This document shows, in pieces, positions 4,635 to 59,938 of a stretch of 64,000 nucleotides of DNA. The DNA lies in NCBI RefSeq assembly GCF_006345805.1, contig NC_043013.1:34100001-34164000 (forward strand), given 5' to 3'. The DNA comes from Octopus sinensis. Lineage: Eukaryota. The notes under the pieces are model-generated. The model searched no databases, was not told the origin of the DNA, and worked only from the letters and a program-made list of their open reading frames with translations. Positions within the stretch are counted from its first letter, which is position 1; every line of letters begins with the position of its first letter. Position numbers and translations under genes: made by a program.

Positions 4635-5150
4635 AAATTTTTTTCAATAAATATAAATCTCCCACTGAGGAAGGTGCTAGTTCCCATCAAAGATACAAGG
4701 CTCTATCTTTGGGATGTAGTTAACACAGACAAATTCACATTTGGAACTTGAGAAAAGTCTTGCATATTTTTACTGTTCCACTTACAGATTGCACTTGTAA
4801 TGTACGAATCAGCCGGTCGGTTTCTCTTTTTGAAAATCTCAGTTTACCCAGATTCTTCTTCAAGCATCTACTAACCAAACCTAGTGCTCCAATTATTATT
4901 CGTATGAATATGAATTCATAGTCTGGATATAGAAGCTGGAGGTTTCGAAGCAGTTGTCCATAGATATCATCTTTTTCATTGATTTTTAAAGAGAGATTTA
5001 TATCTGCAGGGCATATGATGGTATACACCTTTGCTCCTCTGTTCCAAATAACAATATCCGGCCTGTTATGTTTATATTTGACAGAAGTTTTACAGTATTC
5101 CTTGTATTTATGTATGTATGTATAATCTTTTGAAAACTGGTGTTATATGT
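4635..5150 (-). mobile_element. 5'-truncated R4/Dong-clade (RLE-type) LINE: endonuclease C-terminus plus 3' UTR
   Basis: Minus-strand translation KYKHNRPDIVIWNR...CPADINL..KINEKDDIYGQL...IIIGALG...SGTVKICKTFLKFQM* carries the PD motif and IIIGALG of a restriction-like endonuclease. It ends in a (CATA)n tract. Confidence 0.8.
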
Positions 5151-7224: not shown

Positions 7225-8040
7225 CACTAGGCTGCCAGATCAGACTGCCTACCAGCATCATCAAGTGAGATTGTATTGCCATGTGGTGCGTCTTTGTTTT
7301 GCAGTGCTTCTGCCCTTTGCGTCGAGTTTTGCAATAATTGAAACAAAGAAACAGGGTGCTTCTGTGAAATTCTGTTTTCTGCTGGGGGAAATTGGCGGCC
7401 AGAACAGTTGCCATGCTTCAAACAGCTACCAAGGACATTGCCATGCAGAAAGCACAAGTTTATGAGTAGTCCATGCTTTAAGAATGTTCACTTGACGCTT
7501 GGAGACTAACCTTGCTCAGGACGAACGTCGACATCCTGAACGAATGAAAACATCAAGAAAATTCATGAACTGATCTTAGAAGACCATCACCAAACAATTG
7601 ACAAACTTGTTGATATGACAGCTGTGTCCTGGAGCTCCTGCCAATGAACTCTGAGTGAGGAACTGCGAAGGAAAATAGTTGCAGCAAAATTTGTGCCCCG
7701 CTTGCTCACAGAAGATCAAAACTAGTCATGAGTGAATGCACGTCGTGACCTGAAAGAAAATTTGGAAGATGATCCAGACCTTTTGTCGCAGGTCATCACT
7801 AGTGACAAAAGTTGATGCTATGGAATTTGCAGATGTTGAAGAGGTGAAAAAAAGCAAAGCGCTGGAGGTGTTGAAAAGCATCACTTTGCAAAAGTTCCAG
7901 CACTGTTTCAAATAGTGGAAAACATGCCTAACCATTGCATTGTTTCAAATGGAGACTACTTTGAAGGTGATACAAGTGTAAACATGTGAAAATAAGTGAA
8001 TAAAATAATATTGCAAAATTCCGGGTTCTCTTGGGAACCC
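7225..8040 (+). mobile_element. Internally deleted, pseudogenised mariner transposon
   Basis: Broken translation ASVKFCFLLG...SGRTSTS...VAAKFVPRLLTEDQ...LSQVITSDKS*CYG is joined at about 7824 to FADVEEVK...FQHCF...SNGDYFEGD. WVP(H/R)xL-like and GDYFE motifs are present and the catalytic middle is missing. Confidence 0.85.
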
Positions 8041-8099: not shown

Positions 8100-8158
<59 letters not shown>

Positions 8159-8177
8159 TATATATCCATATATGTAT

Positions 8178-8389
8178 ATTCTTTTATTCTTATACTGGTT
8201 TCCGTCATTTGACTGTGGCCATGCTGGAGCACCACCTTAAGTCAACTGAATCGGCCCCAGGACATTCTTTTTAAGCCTAGTACTTATTCTATCGGTTTCT
8301 TTCACCAAACCACTATGTTACAGGGACGTAAACACACCAACATCGGTTGTCAAGGGATGAAGGGGGGACAAACAAACATACAAGCATGC

Positions 8390-8436
<47 letters not shown>

Positions 8437-8543
8437 TACGATGGGCTTCTTTCAGTTTCCGCCTACCAAATCAACTCACAAGGCTTTGGTCAGCCCGAGG
8501 CTATAGTAGAACCCGGAACCATGTGGTTGGTAACAACACACCA

Positions 8544-8545
<2 letters not shown>
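8178..8545 (-). mobile_element. SINE family A
   Basis: Reverse-complement homology to 557-925, with an internal (TA)n. Confidence 0.85.
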
Positions 8546-8584
<39 letters not shown>

Positions 8585-8589
8585 ATAAA

Positions 8590-8993
8590 TATTAGGGAAT
8601 AAATCCAAATTTACAGGGAAAAAAATCAGATTTAGGATTAAATCCAATTTTATAGTAAAATATTATAAAATATTATTAGAGACAAAACCACTATTTTGCA
8701 AAACAAACAAGGAAAGACTTAATCAATACATAAAATTTAATAATAATAGTCAAAAAAACCGCCACTACAATCGTTTCTTGTCTTGATCGACAATCTTCAG
8801 GTGGACTTCCAATAAGTCAGTTTCAAATTATGAGAAACTGACTTATTGGAAGTCCACCTGAAGATTGTCGATCAAGACAAGAAACGATTGTAGTGGCGGT
8901 TTTTTTGACTATTTATTAAAATTTTATGTATTGATTAAGTCTTTCCTTGTTTGTTTTGCAAAATAGTGGTTTTGTCTCTAATAATATTTTATA
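8590..8993. mobile_element. Near-perfect palindrome with about 160-bp arms (8664-8824 / 8834-8993) plus a left-arm tail; PLE inverted pLTR-like
   Basis: Arms are reverse complements apart from a small AT-patch difference, with a 9-nt spacer. (TA)n flanks both sides. Confidence 0.85.
8854..8896 (+). ncRNA. Minimal type-I hammerhead ribozyme motif (mirror copy on the minus strand at 8762-8804)
   Basis: ccac CTGAAGA ttgtc-gatcaa-gacaa GAAAC gatt GTA gtgg: stem I ccac/gtgg, stem II ttgtc/gacaa, intact core and GUA cleavage triplet. Confidence 0.8.
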
Positions 8994-9660
8994 TATATAT
9001 ATATATATATATACAGCTACTCCTTATATATATATATACATACATACATACATACAAATATACATACATTCATAGGTACATATGTATGTATGCATACATA
9101 TATATTCATATACATATATATAATACTTACATTCGTATATTCATACATACTCATATTTATCTTAACTCTAAATGTATTTAAGCAAAAGTTCCTCTAATAT
9201 TTGGAGACATATGCTTATGGAGAAATCCACATAATAGCCTTAGTAAAGAACTTCATAAACGTAGGATGATGTTTATTAATTTTGGCAGAAAATAATAACA
9301 TCTTGCTCAACACATCCATTACACAATTTTGAATTACGCAGAAATACACATGCACAAACACATAAATACAAGCACACACCTACATTCACACATGCATACA
9401 CACAGCTCTTCGCATAATTAATTAGGATGTCACTTGACAGCAATCACTGCACGAAATATTTCGTTATCTTTTACAAATCTGTAACATATTAATCACTTTA
9501 TATGCTCTAGTACAGCTATTGAGTACGCAATCATCCTTGTTTTATATTGTCCTACAATAATCTTTTATGTGTCTATATGTATGTGACTGTGTCTTATCTG
9601 TATTCTTGTATATATATCAGCACACACATTGTGTATATGTGTGTGTGCGTGTGTTTATAT

Positions 9661-10627: not shown

Positions 10628-12836
10628 ATGATAAACGAACAGAAAATTATGCAATAAAGTTTCTTGTATATTCCGTTTTTTGTCTCTATCATTTGTTGTA
10701 TACTCAACGAACGCTGAGCAATTCCTGGGGTAGATCCAATGACAATTGTGTAAATATTGTGAATTATGTCAGGTAGTCATAGGCAGTGAACGTGCATTAT
10801 CAGGTAGTATGTTTAAATAATTACTAATAAACACACACATATATCTCACACTGTTTTCTTTCTTTCCTCTCCCTCTATAATCCTCTATAATTTCCATTTA
10901 TACCCCCCTTCTTTGCTGTCCTCTTTCTCCCACTCCCTACTACCTTTCGTTTCTTCTCTCTTCTCCTCACTCCCTTTCTTTCTTTCTTTCTCTCATCCTC
11001 TCTCTTTTCCCCATTCCTCTCTGCCTGTTGTTCACACGTGTCTACGGACCATTTCTCTCGCCCCTGTCTTTTCTGGACAAGACATCCACCAGGCTGGACG
11101 TCATTTCTCTTGCCTCCCGACATTTTTTCTCTTCTATTATTTTCTTCTCTTCTCTTCTATTTCCTTTAAGACTTTCTCCCAGGCGTCACCCATTACAGTT
11201 CGTCTTGGCTTAACAGCACTTAATGCTTGTCTTCATCGATTTTGTACGACTTTGTACGTCCACTCTGTTGCTGTTTGTTTGTTCGAAGCCTTAACTGTCC
11301 ACAAATTTTATATTTTCAAAATTTCTGGATTCTGCTGTCTTATGACATTTTCCTATCTTGTCATTAAAAGCACGAAATAGGGAGTAGTAAAACAGCCGGT
11401 AACCGACGAGCGAGGCTTTTTGTTTTTGAATTTTATCCTGTACTGACCTCTCGAGTCGTGTCTTCACGTATTTTTCACTCGCTGGTGATGTCTTGTACAT
11501 GTGTATTATATATATATATATATATTGTGTATGTATGTACGTACGTATGTATGTATGTATGTATATAAGCATATATACAAATATGTATACATATAACTGA
11601 TAGATAATTGGTTAGGAACCTTGCCTCAAATACTATCCAACAATCTACCATCCTGTTTGGTTTTATATAATCAAGAATGTACTATTGTGCAATTCATGTT
11701 GACACCATTGAATTATGGTCTCATAGGTTCAACTTAAATTCTCTTATTCTACAACTATACAGATCGAATCATTTTATCAAAGGCTAGGTTAAAATTCCGG
11801 GTCTGAATGGCATTTAAGAAAAACTGAAAGCAGATGAGATAGTTGTATGGCTTTGGGTATATATATATATGTTGCAATGCACCAATAAATGTATATCGTT
11901 GTTATTATGTTAAACTGTCGTATGTCCAAACACGGTCAAATGCGTTTGATTCAGTATTTAATTTTGTTTGCAATAGCCGGTTCTTTGGGGCAAACTATCG
12001 TATCTCCTGCTGCTTGAGCTGCCAAGATATCAAAAATTGTCAAAGTGTAGTACAACGGTTTTGCTGTGGAATGGTGAAACAATTTTTTGTTTGTTTTTGA
12101 AAAAAAAAACACAATGATTTGGACTTACGACACTTTTGCATAATAGCAACTATATATATCATTTTTGTTTTGTGTTAGTCAGAGGGCTGCAACCAAGCTC
12201 GGTCATCACGTTGAATTACTCAGTTGAAAAAATATACCTTAATACTGAATTTTTAAATTCTGGTATTTATTTTATCCATCTTATTTGCTAATCCACAAGG
12301 ACATGAACAAACCGAACCTGGCTGTCAAGTAGAGAAGTGGGCACAAAAATCACACACATATACATATACGAAGAGCTTCTATGCAGTTTCCAAATATCGA
12401 ATTAATTTACAAGGTGCTATGCAGTGAGATTGAACCTGAAACGATATGATTGGAGAGTGAGCTTCTTAACTACACACCTATACCACATATGCATATATAT
12501 ATATGTATATGCATATTATATGCATATGCATGTATACACATACATGCATACACATACATGCACACATATATATATGCTTGCTTAGGCTTGTATCTCTCTC
12601 TCTTTCTTTATTTATATAAATGTATATATTAATATTCATATATATATATATATATAGCAATTGCAATTTCTTCAACAATTTTTCGAAGATTGTTCAGTAA
12701 GTGTGAAACTGTAATAAGTGGAGAATCCTTTAGCAAGCTAAGTGGAAATATTTTTATGTGGCAAGATGCACCCTCCCAACACCAATAGTAATCTCACTTT
12801 CTCACAAATACTCACACATACTTACAAACACACATA

Positions 12837-12839
<3 letters not shown>

Positions 12840-12869
<30 letters not shown>

Positions 12870-13105
12870 TTGCAAAATTACTTGCACAAACATATGGTGT
12901 AAAATATAAAGATTTTGAATTTTTGTGTGTGCTTATAGACTTGCAAAGAATCACATACAGCTATAGCTGTATTATATTATACGCACATAGGACACACACA
13001 TGCACACATATCTATGTAGGCCAGCGTGGAACATGAACGTTAAATGATGATGACAATGATGATGAGGATGATGTGAACATACATACACATATATATACTC
13101 ATATA

Positions 13106-13144
<39 letters not shown>

Positions 13145-13259
13145 TTGTTACGTTTGTAAATAAGGTATACATATGCATACAGTTATTCATATGAATGAAT
13201 GTATATACATACATGTGTGTGTATATGTGTAATTGTAGATATGTATACATGCACACACA

Positions 13260-13293
<34 letters not shown>

Positions 13294-13902
13294 TAACAAA
13301 GTGGAGTTACACACACACACATGTGCATGCATGTATATAAAATCTTTTGTTATTTCATTGTTATCGATAACTAGGGTTTGACCATGCTGGACAATACTAT
13401 CAAGGATATATATTAATTATAATCTCCCAGTAGTTTGCTGGTACATAGTTTATTGAGCTGAAACAATGATGAGAGGTGAAGATGACCACTTCAGAGTATA
13501 ATGGAATATAAAAATTATCAGGAAGTATTTTTGTCAAATACCCTAAAGGCACAATTTCAAAGTTTATACACATTCATACATATACCAGTATGTGCATATA
13601 CATCCGTATACATACCCATATATATACATACATATATATATATATTATATATATATATATATATCATTGCAAAATTACTTGCACAAACATATGGTGTAAA
13701 ATATAAAGATTTTGAATTTTTGTGTGTGCTTATAGACTTGCAAAGAATCACATACAGCTATAGCTGTATTATATTATACGCACATAGGACACACACATGC
13801 ACACATATCTATGTAGGCCAGCGTGGAACATGAACGTTAAATGATGATGACAATGATGATGAGGATGATGTGAACATACATACACATATATATACTCATA
13901 TA

Positions 13903-13945
<43 letters not shown>

Positions 13946-14424
13946 TTGTTACGTTTGTAAATAAGGTATACATATGCATACAGTTATTCATATGAATGAA
14001 TGTATATACATACATGTGTGTGTATATGTGTAATTGTAGATATGTATACATGCACACACATGCATATAATATATATATATATATATATATGCATAACAAA
14101 GTGGAGTTACACACACACACATGTGCATGCATGTATATAAAATCTTTTGTTATTTCATTGTTATCGATAACTAGGGTTTGACCATGCTGGACAATACTAT
14201 CAAGGATATATATTAATTATAATCTCCCAGTAGTTTGCTGGTACATAGTTTATTGAGCTGAAACCAATGATGAGAGGTGAAGATGACCACTTCAGAGTAT
14301 AATGGAATATAAAAATTATCAGGAAGTATTTTTGTCAAATACCCTAAAGGCACAATTTCAAAGTTTATACACATTCATACATATACCAGTATGTGCATAT
14401 ACATCCGTATACATACCCATATAT

Positions 14425-14455
<31 letters not shown>
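12840..14455. repeat. Near-identical tandem duplication of about 800 bp bounded by (TA)n tracts
   Basis: atcattgcaaaattacttgcac starts near 12866 and 13663. The units differ mainly in TA length plus a 1-bp indel (gaaacaatg vs gaaaccaatg). Confidence 0.9.
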
Positions 14456-14465
<10 letters not shown>

Positions 14466-14989
14466 TGTACTTGTGTGTGTTTGTGGTGGGGGTTTGTATA
14501 AATTATAAGTGTGTTCAGAAATACGTGAAATTCTTTAAAAAAAAACCTAACATTAAACATATGCTCAAACACACACACACACGTGCTTGCGTGTACGCTT
14601 ATATATTTCATAGGTAGAGAGATAGAATGTGTATTTGTGTTTATGTATTTGATAGACATAGATATTTTAGGCAATCACACTTGTTAATAATCACATTCAC
14701 ATACACTTACTAATATTTACCTCTCCTGGTGTAACTTTAAATGTACACACATACACACACACACATATGTTTGTATATGTTCGTGAGTGTGTGTATAAGT
14801 GTGTGGCTGGTGGGTACATGTACATGTAGAAATGCAAATTGTCTCCCTCTCAAATGCAAATATATTGCAATAAATTTTTTTTTCTCTGCATGAAATGCTA
14901 TTTGGTGTATGATACACCCACACCACACATGCACACATTATTAAAAAAACCTCCGATGCCGAAAAAAAAATTACTATTTTTATAACTGC

Positions 14990-16494: not shown

Positions 16495-16526
<32 letters not shown>

Positions 16527-16531
<5 letters not shown>

Positions 16532-16663
16532 TTCTGGGTTCAGTCCCACTGCATGGGAACTTGGGCAAGTGTCTTCTACTATAGCCTCGGGCCACCCAAA
16601 GCTTTGTGAGTGGATTTGGTAGACGGAAACTAAAAGAAGCCCGTCGTATATATGTGTATGTAT

Positions 16664-16721
<58 letters not shown>

Positions 16722-16922
16722 CATATATTTGTCCCCCCAACATCACTTGACAACTGATGCTGGTGCGTTTATGCCCCTGTAACTTAGTAGTTCGGCAAAA
16801 GAGGCCGATAGAGTAAGTACTAGGCTTACAAAGAATAAGTCCTGGGGTCAATTTGCTTGACTAAAGGCGGTGCTCCAGCGTGGTCACAGTCACATGACTG
16901 AAGCAATTAAAAGAGTAAAGAG
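16527..16922 (+). mobile_element. SINE family A (5' truncated)
   Basis: Homology to other family A copies. Confidence 0.85.
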
Positions 16923-16946
16923 CACATATATATATATATATATATA

Positions 16947-22679: not shown

Positions 22680-22726
<47 letters not shown>

Positions 22727-22728
22727 TG

Positions 22729-23125
22729 TAGGCATAGGAGTGGCTGTGAAGTAAGAAGCTTGCTTCCCAACCACATGGTTCTGGGTTCAATCCTACTGCA
22801 TAGCACATCAGACAAATGTCTTCTCCTCTATCCTCGGGCTGACCAAAGCCTTGTGAGTAGATTTGGTAGACGGAAACTGAAAGAAGCCCGTTGTATATAT
22901 ATATATGTATATTTTTGTGTGTCTGTGCTTGACCCTTCACTTGACAACTGATGCTGGTGTGTTTAAGTCCCTGTAACTTAGTGGTTTAACAAAAGAGACT
23001 GATAGAATAAGTACTAGGCTTAGGAAAGAATAAGTCCTGGGGTCGATTTGTTCAACTAAAGGTGGTCCTCCAGCATGGCCGCAGTCAAATGACTGAAACA
23101 ACTAAAAGAATAAAACAATAAAAGA
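22729..23125 (+). mobile_element. SINE family A, full length
   Basis: Head ggcataggagtggctgtg through to tail gactgaaacaactaaaag. Confidence 0.85.
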
Positions 23126-23599
23126 ATATGTGTGTGTGTATGAATGTGTATGTGCTTATGTTTGACATTATGTGACAATATTAAAAACAAATGTCACTTT
23201 TAATCAAACAATGTTGTATGTTTCTAATCTTCATTGCAGAGATGTCCAGCTATAAGGAAATATTACCTTGCTTGGGAATACATGCAACAAGGGTATTTGA
23301 ATGTAAAATATCTGCTTCAAAGAATTTATGCGTGGATTAACAATGCTGCCAATGGTTTCATGTCGAAAAAATCTTTTCCTGGATTGCTTGAAAATTGTGA
23401 AAATACTCCACATAAAACCATTGGTTGCATTGTTTATCTAGAAATATTGAATATTTATCCACCAGTACTGTTATGAGCAGTCATTCTCACAATTATTTGT
23501 ATGTTTGAGTGGTGTACATTCATATATATATATATATATATATATAAGTAAATAATATTATTCTCAAACACAAGATAATGCTAAGAATATAGCATGAAC

Positions 23600-38326: not shown

Positions 38327-38424
38327 AAGTTAATTTCTATGATTGGATGCTTTTCCTAACACCAACAACTTTACAGAGCATGCTGGGTGATTTTTGTGTG
38401 GCACCAGCATGGGATATATATATG

Positions 38425-38594
38425 CGCAGGAGTGACTGTGTGGTAAGTAGCTTGCTAACCAGCCACATGTTTCCGGGTTCAGTCCCACTGCGTGGCATCT
38501 TGGACAAGTTGTCTTCTACTATAGCCCCGGGCCGACCAATGCCTTGTGAGTGGATTTGGTAGACAGAAACTGAAAGAAGCCTGTCGTATATATG

Positions 38595-38625
<31 letters not shown>

Positions 38626-38850
38626 ATGTGTTTGTGTGTGTGTGTTTTTCCCCCTAGCATTGCTTGACAACCGATGCTGGTGTGTTTACGTCCCCATCAC
38701 TTAGCGGTTTGGCAAAAGAGACCGATAGAATAAGTACTGGGCTTACAAAGAATAAGTCCTGGGGTCGATTTGCTTGACTAAAAAGGCGGTGCTCCAGCAT
38801 GACCTCAGTCAAATGACTGAAACAAGTAAAAGAGTAAAAGAGTAAAAGAG
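38425..38850 (+). mobile_element. SINE family A, full length
   Basis: Complete head, internal microsatellite and (gagtaaaa)n tail. Confidence 0.9.
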
Positions 38851-39059
38851 TATATATATATAGGGTTAGCTTACCCTCTGTAGTTGGGCTGATGGTTTTA
38901 ACTACCATGAACTGGAGTGCACTAAGCAGAGCCTGATGTAGTAGCAGAAATAAGTATATTCCAATCTTGGGTGACTCTTGTCCTTCACTACGTAACACTG
39001 GGGATCTCTCTGTCTCTGTAATGGATACTAAAAGCATCCCCTCATCCCTCCATATTGTT

Positions 39060-39390: not shown

Positions 39391-40276
39391 TGAATATTGT
39401 GAACAAGAGCACAGTATCTACAGACTGATCTAGATTGTCTACATAAGCACAGGCACAGTTTTCTATGACTAGAGTTTCTTATATAAGGTAATTTTATCAT
39501 TCTAGTCCTTACATTTCAAAATCAATTAAGCCAGCGAATTGTAGGATTTTGTTTACTGGAAAATGTTTCTCGGCGCTAAAGATGACATGCAGAATTAACT
39601 TGCAGAAACACACACACAATGAGCATTTGCAGTTTCTGTCCACCAGTTCCACTCTCAAAGCCTTAGTCAGCCTAAGGCTATTATAATAGAAGGCATTTGT
39701 CCATGGTACCAAATAACAGGACTGGACAGAAAACCACGTAGTTGCAAAGCAAGCCTTATTATGGTCACACAATCAAACATACAAACACCTACACATATGG
39801 AGGGGAAGAAAGAGGAGGGAAAGAAAGAGGAGGGTGAGAGAGAGAGAGGAGGGGAGGGGAGTATATTATTGAAGCTAAGAAAAGTACACAAACTGTTATT
39901 CCAAGTTTCAGACAACTGATCATCAGGCAAAAGTGTACTTTGGAACAATAAATTGTTTTCTTTTGCTACCAAACAAAGTATATATTTATAATTAATTAGC
40001 TATCAATAGATTTTTAAAAAATTTCTCAATCAATTAACAAATCTGAAACCATCATACATAATCAATCTTTACCAATGTGATGGTATGTATGTATGTATGT
40101 ATGTATGTATGTATGTATGTATGTATGTATGTATGTATGTATGTATGTATGTATGTATGCATGCATGTATGTATGTATGTATGTATGTATGTATGTATGT
40201 ATCTATCTATCTATCTTTCTATTTATCTATCTATCTGTACATATATATACATATATGTGTATATATATACATATAT

Positions 40277-40499
40277 TCTTTATATTCTTTTATTTGTTTC
40301 CATCATTTGACTGTGGCCATGCTGGAGCATCAAATTTAGTCAAACAAATTAACCCCACAACTTATTCTTTATAAGACTACTACTTATTCTATCAGTCTCT
40401 TTGCCGAACCGCTGAGTTACGGGGATGTAAACACACCAGCATCAGTTGTCAAGCGATGGTGGGGGGACAAACATAGATATGCAAACATGCACACACACG

Positions 40500-40531
<32 letters not shown>

Positions 40532-40690
40532 CGACGGGCTTCTTTCAGTTTCCGTCTACCAAATCCACTCACAAGGCTTTGGTCGGCCTGAGACTATAGT
40601 AGAAGACACTTACCCAAGGTGCCACGCAGAATGACTTAACCTGGAACCATGTTGTTGGTAAGCAAGCTACTTACCACACAGCCACGCCTA
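40277..40690 (-). mobile_element. SINE family A
   Basis: Homology to other copies. Confidence 0.85.
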
Positions 40691-40697
40691 TACATAA

Positions 40698-40728
<31 letters not shown>

Positions 40729-41503
40729 CATGTATATTTCTTCCATCTTTCGTCGCTCTAAATATAACACACTGTGTTCTTTCTCTCACACTCTTTCTCA
40801 CCCTACTCTTTCTATTTTCTTCTTTCTCAGAACTCACACACATCTAAGAAGCTATATTTTACTTCTCTATCTCCATAAGTAGTTCCCGCCCAGCTATCCC
40901 TCTTCTATATCCAATTCCTAATATTTGCTTAATCATTGTTTTTTAGGGTTTTTTTTTTTTTTACTTATTTTCTAATTCACTTTTCTTTGTTTTTACAACT
41001 TGAAAAAAATAAACAAAACAATGAAGAAAATTCTATCCTTAAGGACTTCTATCAATTTAGTGCATAAAATAACAACAGCAGAATCAAAAGCAACAACAAC
41101 AAAAACAACAACAACAACTGCATAACATCAACAGTAACAACTACAACAGCAACAACAACAATAACATCGACAATGAAAACAACAAAACAAGAACAACAAA
41201 AACTGCAACAGTGCCAATAGTATCACCTGTGATAACAATAACAGACAGGACAGCAACAACAGCAGACGAAACAACAACTATAAAGTGTGGAAATAAATAC
41301 TAAAAATAATATGGAAGACAACAACAACAACAACAACATCAAGAATAAGAGTAATGGTAAGAACAATATAATGGAGAATATCAACTACCACAATAGCAAC
41401 GAGAACAACAAGATGAGACAGCTGACAACACAACAATAATGGTAAGAACTACGATGATAAAACCAACAACAACAATAATAATGATAATAACAATAATAGT
41501 AAT

Positions 41504-43220: not shown

Positions 43221-43666
43221 ACATGTATTTTTCTTTTCTTTAGGCATAGGAGTGGCTGTGTGGTAAGTAGCTTGCTTACGAACCACATGGTTCCAGGTTC
43301 AGTCCCACTGCGTGGTACCTTGGGCAAGAGTCTTCTACTATAGCCTCAGGCCGATCAAAGCCTTGTGAGTGGATTTGGTAGACGGAAACTGAAAGAAGCC
43401 CATCGTATATATGTATATATATATATATATGTGTATGTGTGTATATATGTTTGTGTATTTGTGTTTATTCCCCCCACAACATGGCCTCACAATCGATGCT
43501 GGTATGTTTACCTCCTCATAACTTAGTGGTTCGGCAAAAAAGAGTGATAGAATAAGTACTAGGCATACAAAGAATAAGTCCTGGGGTCGATTTGCTTGAC
43601 TAAAGGTGGTGGTGCTCCAGTATGACCACAGTCATATGACTGAAACAAGTAAAAGAGTAAAAAGAG
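43221..43666 (+). mobile_element. SINE family A, full length
   Basis: Complete head to tail. Confidence 0.9.
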
Positions 43667-43934
43667 TATACATACATACATATATACATACACATGTACA
43701 TACATGTACACAATATCTCAAGCAGACAATCATGGACTCTGTGACAGACTAAGTCAAAAGTCATTGAAAAGGTTGCAAGTAACTATGAAAGAGCTTTGGC
43801 TAAAAAAAACAAAATAAACGACTCACTGTTTAACTAAGTTAAACAAACAATCGATTAGTTAGTTAGATATTTAACAAATTGACTAATAATAAAGGAGTGG
43901 AACTGAACCAATGCACGTGTTAATAAGGATTTAA

Positions 43935-52176: not shown

Positions 52177-52754
52177 TAAATGAGAATAATAATAATAATA
52201 ATAATCATTTCTCACAATATGCACAAGGCCTGAAATTTTTTAGGAGAAGGTGTTTGTTGGTTACATCGACCTTGGTGCTCAAAGGATGAAGGACAAAGTC
52301 ATCCTCAGTGGAAATTGAACTCCGAATATAAAGGCAGATGAAATGCTACTACATGGTTCGTCAGGCATGCTAATGGTTCTGCAAGTTCACTGCCTTGATA
52401 AGGGTAATGATTCTATATTTTGGTCCAAGTCCAGCAACTTTGGGAGAAGGAAGTAATTCAATTACACTGACGCCAGTGCTCAGCTGGTGCTTATTTTATC
52501 GACCCCAAAAGGATGAAAGGCAAAGTCGACCTTGGCAAGATTTGAACTTGGAACTTAAAGAGCTGAAAGAAATGCTGCTAAGCATTCTATCCAGTGTGCT
52601 AATGATCCTGCTAGCACACCACATTTAATAATTTCAAATTTAGACGCAAAATCAGTAATTACAGTAGGATTAAACTTGAGAGCTCATCATTATGAAAGGA
52701 ATGTCTTAATGATGCAGCTATGTCAGCAAAAGTGTATTTTTTTATTCTTTTATT

Positions 52755-53132
52755 TTTTTACTTGTTTCAGTCATTTGATTGCGGTCATGCTGGGGCACCA
52801 CCTTCATTCAAGCAGATCAACCCCAGGACTTATTCTTTGTAAGCCTAGTACTTATTCTATTGGATTTTTTTGCCAAACCACCAAGTTACAGGGATGTAAA
52901 CATACCAGCATCGGTTGTCAAGCAATGCTGGAGAGACAAACACAGACACACATGCACATATAATTATATATGACAAGTTTCTTTCAGTTTCCGTCTACTA
53001 AATTCATTCACAAGGCTTTGGTCAGCTCGAGGCTATAGTAGAAGACACTCACCCAAGGAGCCACACAGTGGGACTGAACCCAGAACCATGTGGTTGGTAA
53101 GCAAACTACTTACCACTCAGCCACTCCTGTGC
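52755..53132 (-). mobile_element. SINE family A
   Basis: Homology to other copies. Confidence 0.85.
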
Positions 53133-54331
53133 TTGTTTATCTACTTTTCTTTCTTCAATTGTATTCCGAGTGAAAATGCAATCGGTTAGCATATGCAGAA
53201 TAACATAGTGGACAAATGGTTACAGAGTATCTTTTGAGGGCAACATACTGACAAGTATGTTTGAATATAAATATCTTTTGATGACTATGACAAAATAGCA
53301 AGGACAAGTATTCAAAGTAAATGAACAAAAAATATGAAAATAAAAATCTTTTGGAAATAATTTCCTATTCAATGTATAGAATAAAGTTACGTTGCACTAT
53401 TTTGCAACATGCTTTTATTTCAAAGAACACAAATATAAATTTACCCGAGATGATGCGTGTGTGTGAATATGTATGCCTATATATATGTGTGTGTGTGTGT
53501 TTATGTGTATGTGTATATACACACATACACACATATATACAAAAGATATTTATATGTATGTTTTTACATACATATATAGACTTATATGTATATATAACTA
53601 TGCACAAATATGTGTGTGTTTATATATATATATCTATATATTTATATATACACACACATGTATGTAGGTATATGTATACATATATATGTATATACATGTT
53701 TATGCATATAGATATATATATACATATATGTGTGTGTATGTACAGATACATAAATGTATATATGTGTGTGTGTGTGTGTGCACATGTGTACGTGTGTGTG
53801 AATTCAATAATGAAGGAAACTGCAGTGTCTTCTATCTTCTATATTAGCCATAAGGAATATATTGGAAGAGATTTATTAATAACATAATGCTGTGATTGTC
53901 CATTAACTGTCCAGTTTTCTTAATATTCAAAATAAAATTCCATTTATTTCGTAAGAAACTTTCAAGCTTCAAGCCAAGAGAATGAAAGTAACAACCTTAT
54001 TGAATTCTATTTGATGATTTTTCTTTACTCTCCCTCCCTCTCTTCTCTCACACATATACATATGCTTATATATATGCATATATACACATGAATTATATAT
54101 ATATATATATATATACATACATACACACACAGATATATACATATAGATTCATACATATGTATATATACATATATATAGATATAGATATATATATATATGT
54201 ATAAGTACATGCATACATATATTTTTATATACATAATGCATATGTATATATACATGTGTGCATATTATATATATATATGTGTCATAAATATATTATATAT
54301 GCATATCTGTCTATTTATCTATCTATCTATC

Positions 54332-58626: not shown

Positions 58627-59426
58627 GAATGTTATTTTTTGCCAAAGTAGATGTCACATTTTTCTTCAGCTTTGCTACAATTTATGTTTCGTTTTTTTTT
58701 TTTCAAATTAAAACTATACAAAACACCGCTGGGGCAGGAGAAAGGGTTATTACCTAAAGATTTGTGTGAATTTCTTTTTTTGATTTCACATATTTTTTTT
58801 TTTTTGCTGTTATTGTCATATTCTTTTTCTTCAGAATATTCTTTCTTATCCTTAAGAGACCCAGTATCACCAAATAATTTGATGTCTCATATTGATTTGC
58901 TACTAAGTCATTCACCTTCCTCATATCAACACCATTGTCAAGAGGAGGAGGAGGAGGAGGAGGAGGTGAGGATGAAAGATGAGGAATAGAACCAAACACT
59001 TTTGTTGCAGAGTATCTTGTTTCAAAGAAATCTGCCACCTGAAGAATTATTCATGCATATAAGAAACAAATGCCTGCCACATTATCTGAGATATGTTGGA
59101 AGAATGGTTAAGTTTTCTTTGCAATCAGAAGGTCTCAGTTTCAAATCCACTACCTGGCAACTTGGCCAAATGTCATTTGCTATGGCTTTTAACAAACCAA
59201 TATCTTTTAAGTTAAACAGGGCTGATAAAAACTAAAAACTTTATCGAATCCTCTAATATCAAGGCTCAACATTTTCCACACATCATTTCATGCTGATTTG
59301 ACTAGTGAATTACATTAAACCCTTTTGAGACCATCCCACCTGAGACTACTCATAACCACACAGTTCAAACTTCTTGTTTTAATGTCATTTAAGTTCAAAA
59401 CTTCCATTCAAAATTTCATACACTTT

Positions 59427-59832
59427 AACTTGTTTCAGTCATTTGACAGTGGCCATGCTGGAGCACTGCCTTTAGTCAAGCAAATCGACCCCAGGACTTA
59501 TTCTTTGGAAGCCTAGTACTTATTCTATCAGTCTCTTTGGCCAAACCGCTAAGTTACGGGGACGTAAGCACACCAGCATCGGTTGTTAAGTGATGTTGGG
59601 GGGGACAAACACAGACACACAAATACACAAACACACACACACACATACACACACACACATATATATACACATGCATATATACGACAGGCTTCCTTCAGTT
59701 TCTGTCTACTAAATCCACTCACAAGGCTTTGGTCGGCCTGAGGCTATAGTAGAAGACACTTGCCCAAGGGACTGAACCCAGAGCCATGTGATTGGTAAGC
59801 AAACTACTTACCACACAGCCACTCCTGCGCCT
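59427..59832 (-). mobile_element. SINE family A, full length
   Basis: Homology to other copies. Confidence 0.85.
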
Positions 59833-59938
59833 AATGGTAATTTATGTTACAAACACCAGTTATTGAGTTCTTTGTTATTTTCAGAATTAATTGGAACAAA
59901 GGAAATGTATTCCAACAGAAATATGGTAACAATAGAAC

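Follow-up and report, generated by a model that had tools for sequence, protein, structure and literature searches.

What kind of element leaves two inverted copies of one short sequence head to head, each with a hammerhead ribozyme motif, between tracts of TA repeats? This question is raised by a near-perfect palindrome centred at position 8829 of the window, as we call the whole 64-kb stretch of DNA that was analysed. In answer, we conclude that the locus is a head-to-head pair of a short, high-copy, non-coding unit in (TA)n, likely inserted by the reverse transcriptase and endonuclease (RT/EN) of a Penelope-like element (PLE), and the assignment to PLEs as a class is the part of this reading of which we are most confident.

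Anatomy of the palindrome and its repeat family

An earlier note on this DNA had described a palindrome here, and comparison of its arms, read directly from the window, bears this out. The inner arms (8745-8824 and 8834-8913) are identical at 80/80 positions and the outer arms (8664-8738 and 8919-8993) at 75/75, the sole difference, with the other 155/155 positions identical, being an AT-rich patch (8739-8744) where several family variants also occur. As delimited by arm comparison and contig alignments, the left copy (8582-8833, minus strand) is a long form of 252 bp that reads leftwards and has no ATG-led open reading frame (ORF), and the right copy (8834-8993, plus strand) is a short form of 160 bp that lacks both the tail and the first 9 nt of the left copy. 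Beyond the symmetric part, the left arm continues for 82 bp (8582-8663) up to (TA)n, much as the earlier note had estimated (about 75 bp), and this one-sided tail on the minus strand is covered by contigs in 4/4 runs aligned to this copy. Within the tail, two imperfect repeats (8591-8621 and 8630-8660, together spanning 8591-8660) lie about 39 bp apart and match at 77%, and the tail may be an ordinary one that was doubled.

Both ends of the palindrome lie inside (TA)n tracts, and the flanks on its two sides are unlike each other. The left target tract (8547-8581) closes a common host repeat of about 430 bp (8158-8578, which aligns with 16498-16945 at 79%), and the element sits in the TA tail of that repeat. 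The right tract occupies 8990-9013, with 8990-8993 common to the tract and the element end. Because both flanks are (TA)n, a target-site duplication is not readable. No further copy of the unit, tandem included, occurs within the 64-kb window.

Several other features were observed in the neighbourhood. A SINE-like repeat of about 430-470 bp is present in many copies at 67-86% identity (8158-8578, 16498-16945, 22688-23129, 38414-38862, 40236-40737, 43239-43710, 52740-53140, and 59415-59835). On the plus strand, 7380-8030 holds broken reading frames, which by eye resemble a mariner/Tc1 transposase remnant, and on the minus strand, 4735-5142 holds a 135-aa frame that by eye looks like the restriction-like endonuclease end of a non-LTR retrotransposon and has no Pfam match. 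Moreover, 12816-13664 and 13610-14466 form a tandem duplication of about 850 bp (97.9% identity), which is either a recent duplication or an uncollapsed haplotype.

The unit belongs to a family seen directly in public sequencing runs, 20 of the 23 listed (10 studies, 8 organisms) containing at least half of 21 sampled words; one of the 20 may be the window's own sample, and none is recorded as RNA. Contigs were aligned from six of the 20 (X1, X2, X3, X7, X11, and X18). On 8582-8833, these numbered 2,859 (X1), 13,170 (X2), 2,042 (X3), and 1,252 (X11), and on 8812-8925 they numbered 1,758 (X2), 279 (X3), 6 (X7), and 6 (X18), contig depth not being a copy number. For X7 and X18, RNA status is a guess. 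A 25-nt pattern of the unit gave 0 matches in metagenome and prokaryote collections. A 16-nt pattern gave at least 149 loci (at least 120 metagenome and 29 viral), none continuing as a hammerhead and with a best alignment of 21 nt, and these were set aside as chance.

Among the loose-end rows listed, (TA)n is joined directly before 8664 in at least 19 contigs of X1 and at least 39 of X2. Because such ends recur in both runs, the outer end of the right arm (8993, mirrored at 8664) is, on these alignments, a point at which the family stops repeatedly, and copies need not carry the 82-bp tail. On the minus strand, 8660-8667 would then hold the first RT start site, with a TA-like microhomology at 8664. 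The right arm had earlier been taken for a truncated inverted copy; an inverted short copy it is, but its outer end is not random.

At the head-to-head junction (8823-8836), defined by contigs and folding, a micro-hairpin of 3 bp with a 5-nt loop is predicted for the unit's 5′ end (8823-8833). Nor is 8825-8833 a 9-nt spacer: the matching contig ends identify it as the 5′ part of the left copy. In fact, loose ends before 8834 match 8825-8833 in at least 19 contigs of X2 and at least 5 of X3 among the rows listed (median of 12 nt). The common sequence apparently extends no further than some 12 nt upstream of 8834, where TA repeats precede it (X2 consensus, agreement 0.73), and some single 5′ ends join (TA)n directly.

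Contigs that cross the centre show directly that hairpin centres cluster at this 5′ end. In X2 and X3, they gave seven indel rows at 8827-8833, some on one contig, and the commonest junction lacks 8832-8833 (61% of local depth in X2 and 70% in X3), the window having 2 nt more. This commonest junction equals the product predicted for priming at the unit's own 3-bp micro-hairpin. One X11 contig shows another junction, and one X3 contig joins 8833 to 8901, its right copy starting at 8901. The variable inversion points anticipated by the earlier note are thus present, but apart from the joint at 8901 they differ by a few bases only. Judging from the bases that separate the two sides in that same X3 contig, the 5′ end of the unit may carry a TCACT initiator-like motif, which is also quoted for an Adineta pseudo-LTR. 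Depth at the centre is about 0.3% (X2) and 0.1% (X3) of the hammerhead depth, which is depth and not copy number; hairpins look like a minority, and most copies appear to be single arms.

The hammerhead motif

Each copy carries a minimal type I hammerhead motif of 43 nt, the one at 8854-8896 (plus strand; predicted cut after 8892) being, as previously claimed, the exact reverse complement of the one at 8762-8804 (minus strand; predicted cut after 8766). The two were found by descriptor match and lie on opposite strands only 49 bp apart. All core positions are present in both (C3 U4 G5 A6 N7 G8 A9, G12 A13 A14, A15.1-U16.1, and a non-G at 17), and stems I and II are pairable over 4 bp and 5 bp, again in agreement with the earlier reading. 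In the right motif, the core occupies 8858-8864 and 8881-8884 and the self-complementary stem III 8884-8891 on the plus strand, and the triplet is GUA, which is found in natural hammerheads (PMC1636495). These are the only two matches of the type I descriptor in 64 kb; when the window was resampled 30 times under a first-order Markov model, the strict descriptor gave 0 matches and the loose one 0.07 per 64 kb.

To call the motif textbook, as had been done, goes too far. Its pair 10.1-11.1 is U-A and not G-C, stem III of the monomer has only 2 bp, the closing of which costs 0.8 kcal/mol, and on its own the motif is no more stable than its shuffled versions (z -0.70). With Rfam, the whole window gave no hammerhead match at the gathering score, and for 8581-9000 none of the 31 matches up to E=10 is a hammerhead, these being generic, sub-threshold hairpins. 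A miRNA precursor was rejected as well, the Rfam matches being hairpin-only.

As modelled, cleavage would require two sense RNAs to join in a dimer, and small PLE hammerheads reportedly cleave in this way. The lowest-energy dimer of the 43-mer is a double hammerhead for both common alleles, which holds for 27/256 possible loops, and an 8-bp self-duplex of stem III (8884-8891) is predicted for both alleles as well. The allele concerned, 8886 G>A, makes up 47% of depth in X2 and 54% in X3 (contig depth, not copy number) and converts a G.U to an A-U pair, by which the palindrome is kept and made perfect. At the mirror site 8772, this allele is absent among the variants listed for 8582-8833, which disagrees with its share at 8886. 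The energy gain of the dimer is unremarkable, with 120/500 shuffles as good, and with flanks (8845-8905) a different fold wins over the dimer hammerhead. Only 1/11 listed variant sites falls in the 43-nt motif against about 2 expected, which is not significant and gives no signal of selection. In the 8812-8925 alignments, the rows listed show neither a loose end nor an accumulation of ends where the cut is predicted, and contigs cannot show RNA ends.

A read-through transcript of the locus is predicted to form one hairpin of about -261 kcal/mol. Because such an RNA would be one long hairpin with its motifs on opposite strands, the copy at this locus is probably inert as a ribozyme. In addition, a related subfamily (X18 and X3, aligned at 8848-8875 and 8805) has a different sequence upstream of stem I, and in one diverged X18 contig core position 4 is altered and loop II differs, the 5′ strand of stem II being retained.

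Assembly of the head-to-head pair

The earlier note had taken the unit for a hammerhead-bearing retroelement whose longer 3′ end is reached by the left arm, and both points are supported; it named neither the PLE class nor the requirement for a dimer. By analogy, the locus likely works like a PLE pseudo-LTR insertion, strict membership depending on the parent ORF; no parent RT/EN (GIY-YIG) ORF was found in the 64-kb window or linked to the unit, and Pfam gave nothing at cut-off for 5 nearby ORFs. The unit would be the pseudo-LTR or 5′ leader of a PLE transcript, and a PLE enzyme would act in trans and nick the (TA)n target on both strands. Two cDNAs would then be primed at two internal TA-like start sites (8664 and about 8582) and extended as far as the 5′ end of the RNA. 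A small inverted repeat there, the micro-hairpin, would let the cDNA 3′ ends anneal, with fill-in giving the palindrome. The recurrent short end and the optional tail match what is described for an anole PLE, where two RT start sites flank the tail and each strand of the target is nicked and extended by the enzyme (PMC11167929). Truncated copies in inverted orientation, tails at one end, and a bias towards (TA)n are likewise in print (PMC8557442; PMC3846280). Counting against PLE insertion are the tail, which at 82 bp is twice the 30-40 bp in print, and the lack of an ORF start after the hammerhead.

The two-cDNA detail is favoured by us only slightly. The arms differ by two events at 8739-8744, whereas a single event separates the left arm from each of two other family variants, and this mildly favours two templates. 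Against two templates count the 155/155 other identical positions and the slippage-prone nature of the differing patch.

A single cDNA may instead have snapped back on the 5′ micro-hairpin, self-primed its second strand, and been resolved at the short end, an explanation within the same PLE class that we regard as possible but doubtful. The commonest junction is exactly its product, the rare GTAA variant is apparently present in both arms of one X11 hairpin, which favours one source, and self-priming has been proposed for Adineta PLE palindromes (PMC3846280). However, the fold-back has only 3-4 bp (-0.3 kcal/mol as DNA), and intermolecular annealing yields the same junction. Moreover, snap-back alone explains neither the stop of the second arm at the short end nor the difference at 8739-8744.

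A non-LTR retrozyme, of which a tandem unit is transcribed, cut by its hammerheads to monomers, circularised, and reinserted, would suit a non-coding, AT-rich 250-bp unit with a type I hammerhead and the RNA-like contigs in two runs (RNA status guessed), and retrozymes have been argued to derive from PLE pseudo-LTRs (bioRxiv 10.64898/2026.07.22.740005). We consider this improbable here, given that the window holds no tandem copy, that the contig rows listed include neither a joint of tail to head nor a loose end where the cut is predicted, and that about 70 nt separate the unit's 5′ end from the cut site downstream of it.

Less probable again, and largely refuted, is an ordinary MITE or fold-back DNA transposon with a chance hammerhead-like string. 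Tc1/mariner-type MITEs have inverted repeats and TA flanks, and the long, near-perfect inverted repeats and TA flanks of the locus do recall them. The earlier note had named identical symmetric ends as the mark of such an element, but the ends are asymmetric by 82 bp, the centres differ among copies, and most copies appear to be single arms (low centre depth, with some 5′ ends joining (TA)n). A chance string is itself unlikely given the 0 strict descriptor matches in 30 resamples. The least credible explanation is that sequencing or assembly of a solo copy produced a fold-back artefact. Artefacts of this type, palindromes, are known, and no aligned contig spans the whole stretch, but the two flanks differ, as do the arms at 8739-8744, the outer end of the right arm is one found in the family, and three runs (X2, X3, and X11) have contigs that cross the centre.

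There is a hint of splicing at 8844/8845 (plus strand; mirror 8813/8814), a putative exon-exon junction where three upstream forms meet. The first is the window's own sequence across this point, the second is a T-rich tract ending in AG (at least 8 X2 contigs among the rows listed, agreement 0.88), and the third has four additional nucleotides, GTAA, at this point (a single contig in each of X1, X2, and X11). Read with the splice-site consensus, the first and third forms fit two donors 4 nt apart joined to the acceptor of the second. In X7 and X18, whose RNA status is guessed, 6/12 aligned contigs begin their match at 8845; three of these have long, different upstream sequence (95, 1,790, and 1,197 nt), one has a single base, and two begin there. 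The long contigs of X7 (1,820 nt) and X18 (1,227 nt) have their ends on 8845-8874. The X18 upstream sequence ends in CC, which is unusual for an exon end. Donor and acceptor were not found on one molecule among the contigs, the hint coming from contig ends, and a different subfamily or a truncation hotspot at 8845 could give the same picture. Elsewhere, one family variant of the tail (near 8612-8620) matches the consensus of a splice donor when read along the element strand.

Our tentative reading, to which we give somewhat less than an even chance, is that the unit arose by retrocopying of a PLE 5′ leader after splicing; such a processed copy would start at the transcription start, lack an intron at 8844/8845, and end at two RT start sites. 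Transcription would begin about 12 nt upstream of 8834 in element terms, and in the rarer form the splice would fall 4 nt further on. To give the hairpins, two such RNAs would undergo reverse transcription simultaneously, starting at the two nicks, the two leader RNAs possibly being paired via the palindromic stem III of the hammerhead. PLEs are known for keeping introns. Such an intron is found in Drosophila virilis Penelope 46 bp after the start site, ending at the hammerhead (PMC2377424; PMC4209133), and an antisense template has been favoured for PLEs partly because of intron retention (PMC3846280). In the open-access literature, to which our search was confined, we found no report of spliced or intronless PLE copies. 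If the spliced leader is real, thousands of such copies would imply that spliced sense RNA serves as template for a PLE enzyme, contrary to the view that the template is antisense or unspliced.

Comparison with known systems

As a PLE hairpin locus, the palindrome is ordinary: opposite-strand pairs, inverted pseudo-LTRs, one-sided tails, and (TA)n targets are already in print, and the locus adds one member. Its value lies in what it allows to be tested. Why PLEs retain introns and how their inverted repeats arise are stated to be open questions (PMC3846280; PMC8557442). A high-copy family whose 5′ end is defined, with two 3′ ends, numerous independent hairpin junctions, and perhaps both spliced and unspliced forms would make both questions testable by copy counts within a single assembly.

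Among known systems, metazoan non-LTR retrozymes (PMC7229834; bioRxiv 10.64898/2026.07.22.740005) resemble the unit in being non-coding, AT-rich, equipped with a type I hammerhead, and likely moved by a PLE enzyme. In contrast to what is described there, the unit is not tandem in the window, its hammerhead is minimal and not canonical, and its ends lie off the cut site. The minimal PLE hammerheads of Cervera and de la Pena (2014, PMC4209133) are alike in type I topology, a 4-bp stem I, a predicted dimer, and a palindromic 15.2-16.2 and loop 3. Unlike the unit, with its U-A and its stem II of 5 bp, those in the part cited have a conserved G10.1-C11.1 pair and a stem II of 7-8 bp. Opposite-strand pairs are described there at a spacing of 100-700 bp (PMC4209133), as against 49 bp here.

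Endonuclease-bearing (EN+) PLEs with an inverted pseudo-LTR (PMC3846280; PMC8557442; PMC11167929) share with the locus a head-to-head inverted copy, a tail at one end, an AT-rich or (TA)n target, a hammerhead in the pseudo-LTR, and a palindrome at the junction. They have two fixed 3′ ends, to which the recurrent short end and the end of the one-sided tail may correspond here, and solo pseudo-LTRs are mentioned for them, as single-arm copies also appear in the unit family. The locus differs from those described in having no ORF between the copies, a tail of 82 instead of 30-40 bp, and no ORF start in the unit, whereas in the anole and Adineta PLEs an ORF start follows the hammerhead. As for the 5′ leader, that of D. 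virilis Penelope (PMC2377424; PMC4209133) has a short first exon and an intron ending just upstream of the hammerhead, an arrangement that here would be a reconstruction from contig ends. According to the passages cited, most D. virilis Penelope copies keep the intron, whereas the unit appears to lack one.

In style, the hammerhead resembles those of Hydra-clade PLEs, and this clade has, in our estimate, an even chance of being the parent, clade assignment depending on the protein. The hammerhead listed for Hydra-1_Obim differs in sequence from that of the unit (PMC8557442), and the unit's short motifs gave no relevant match in the part of the PMC8557442 supplement that was searched. In the rows of that supplement, stem II opens with U-A in 15/26, as in the unit, and the cut falls after A in 12/26, as predicted for the unit; because of these 15/26 rows, a G10.1-C11.1 pair is not required. 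Moreover, Hydra-clade PLEs share insertion into (TA)n and a hammerhead 90-210 nt from the 3′ end, and one Hydra-clade family has an inverted, 5′-truncated copy like that of the locus (PMC8557442).
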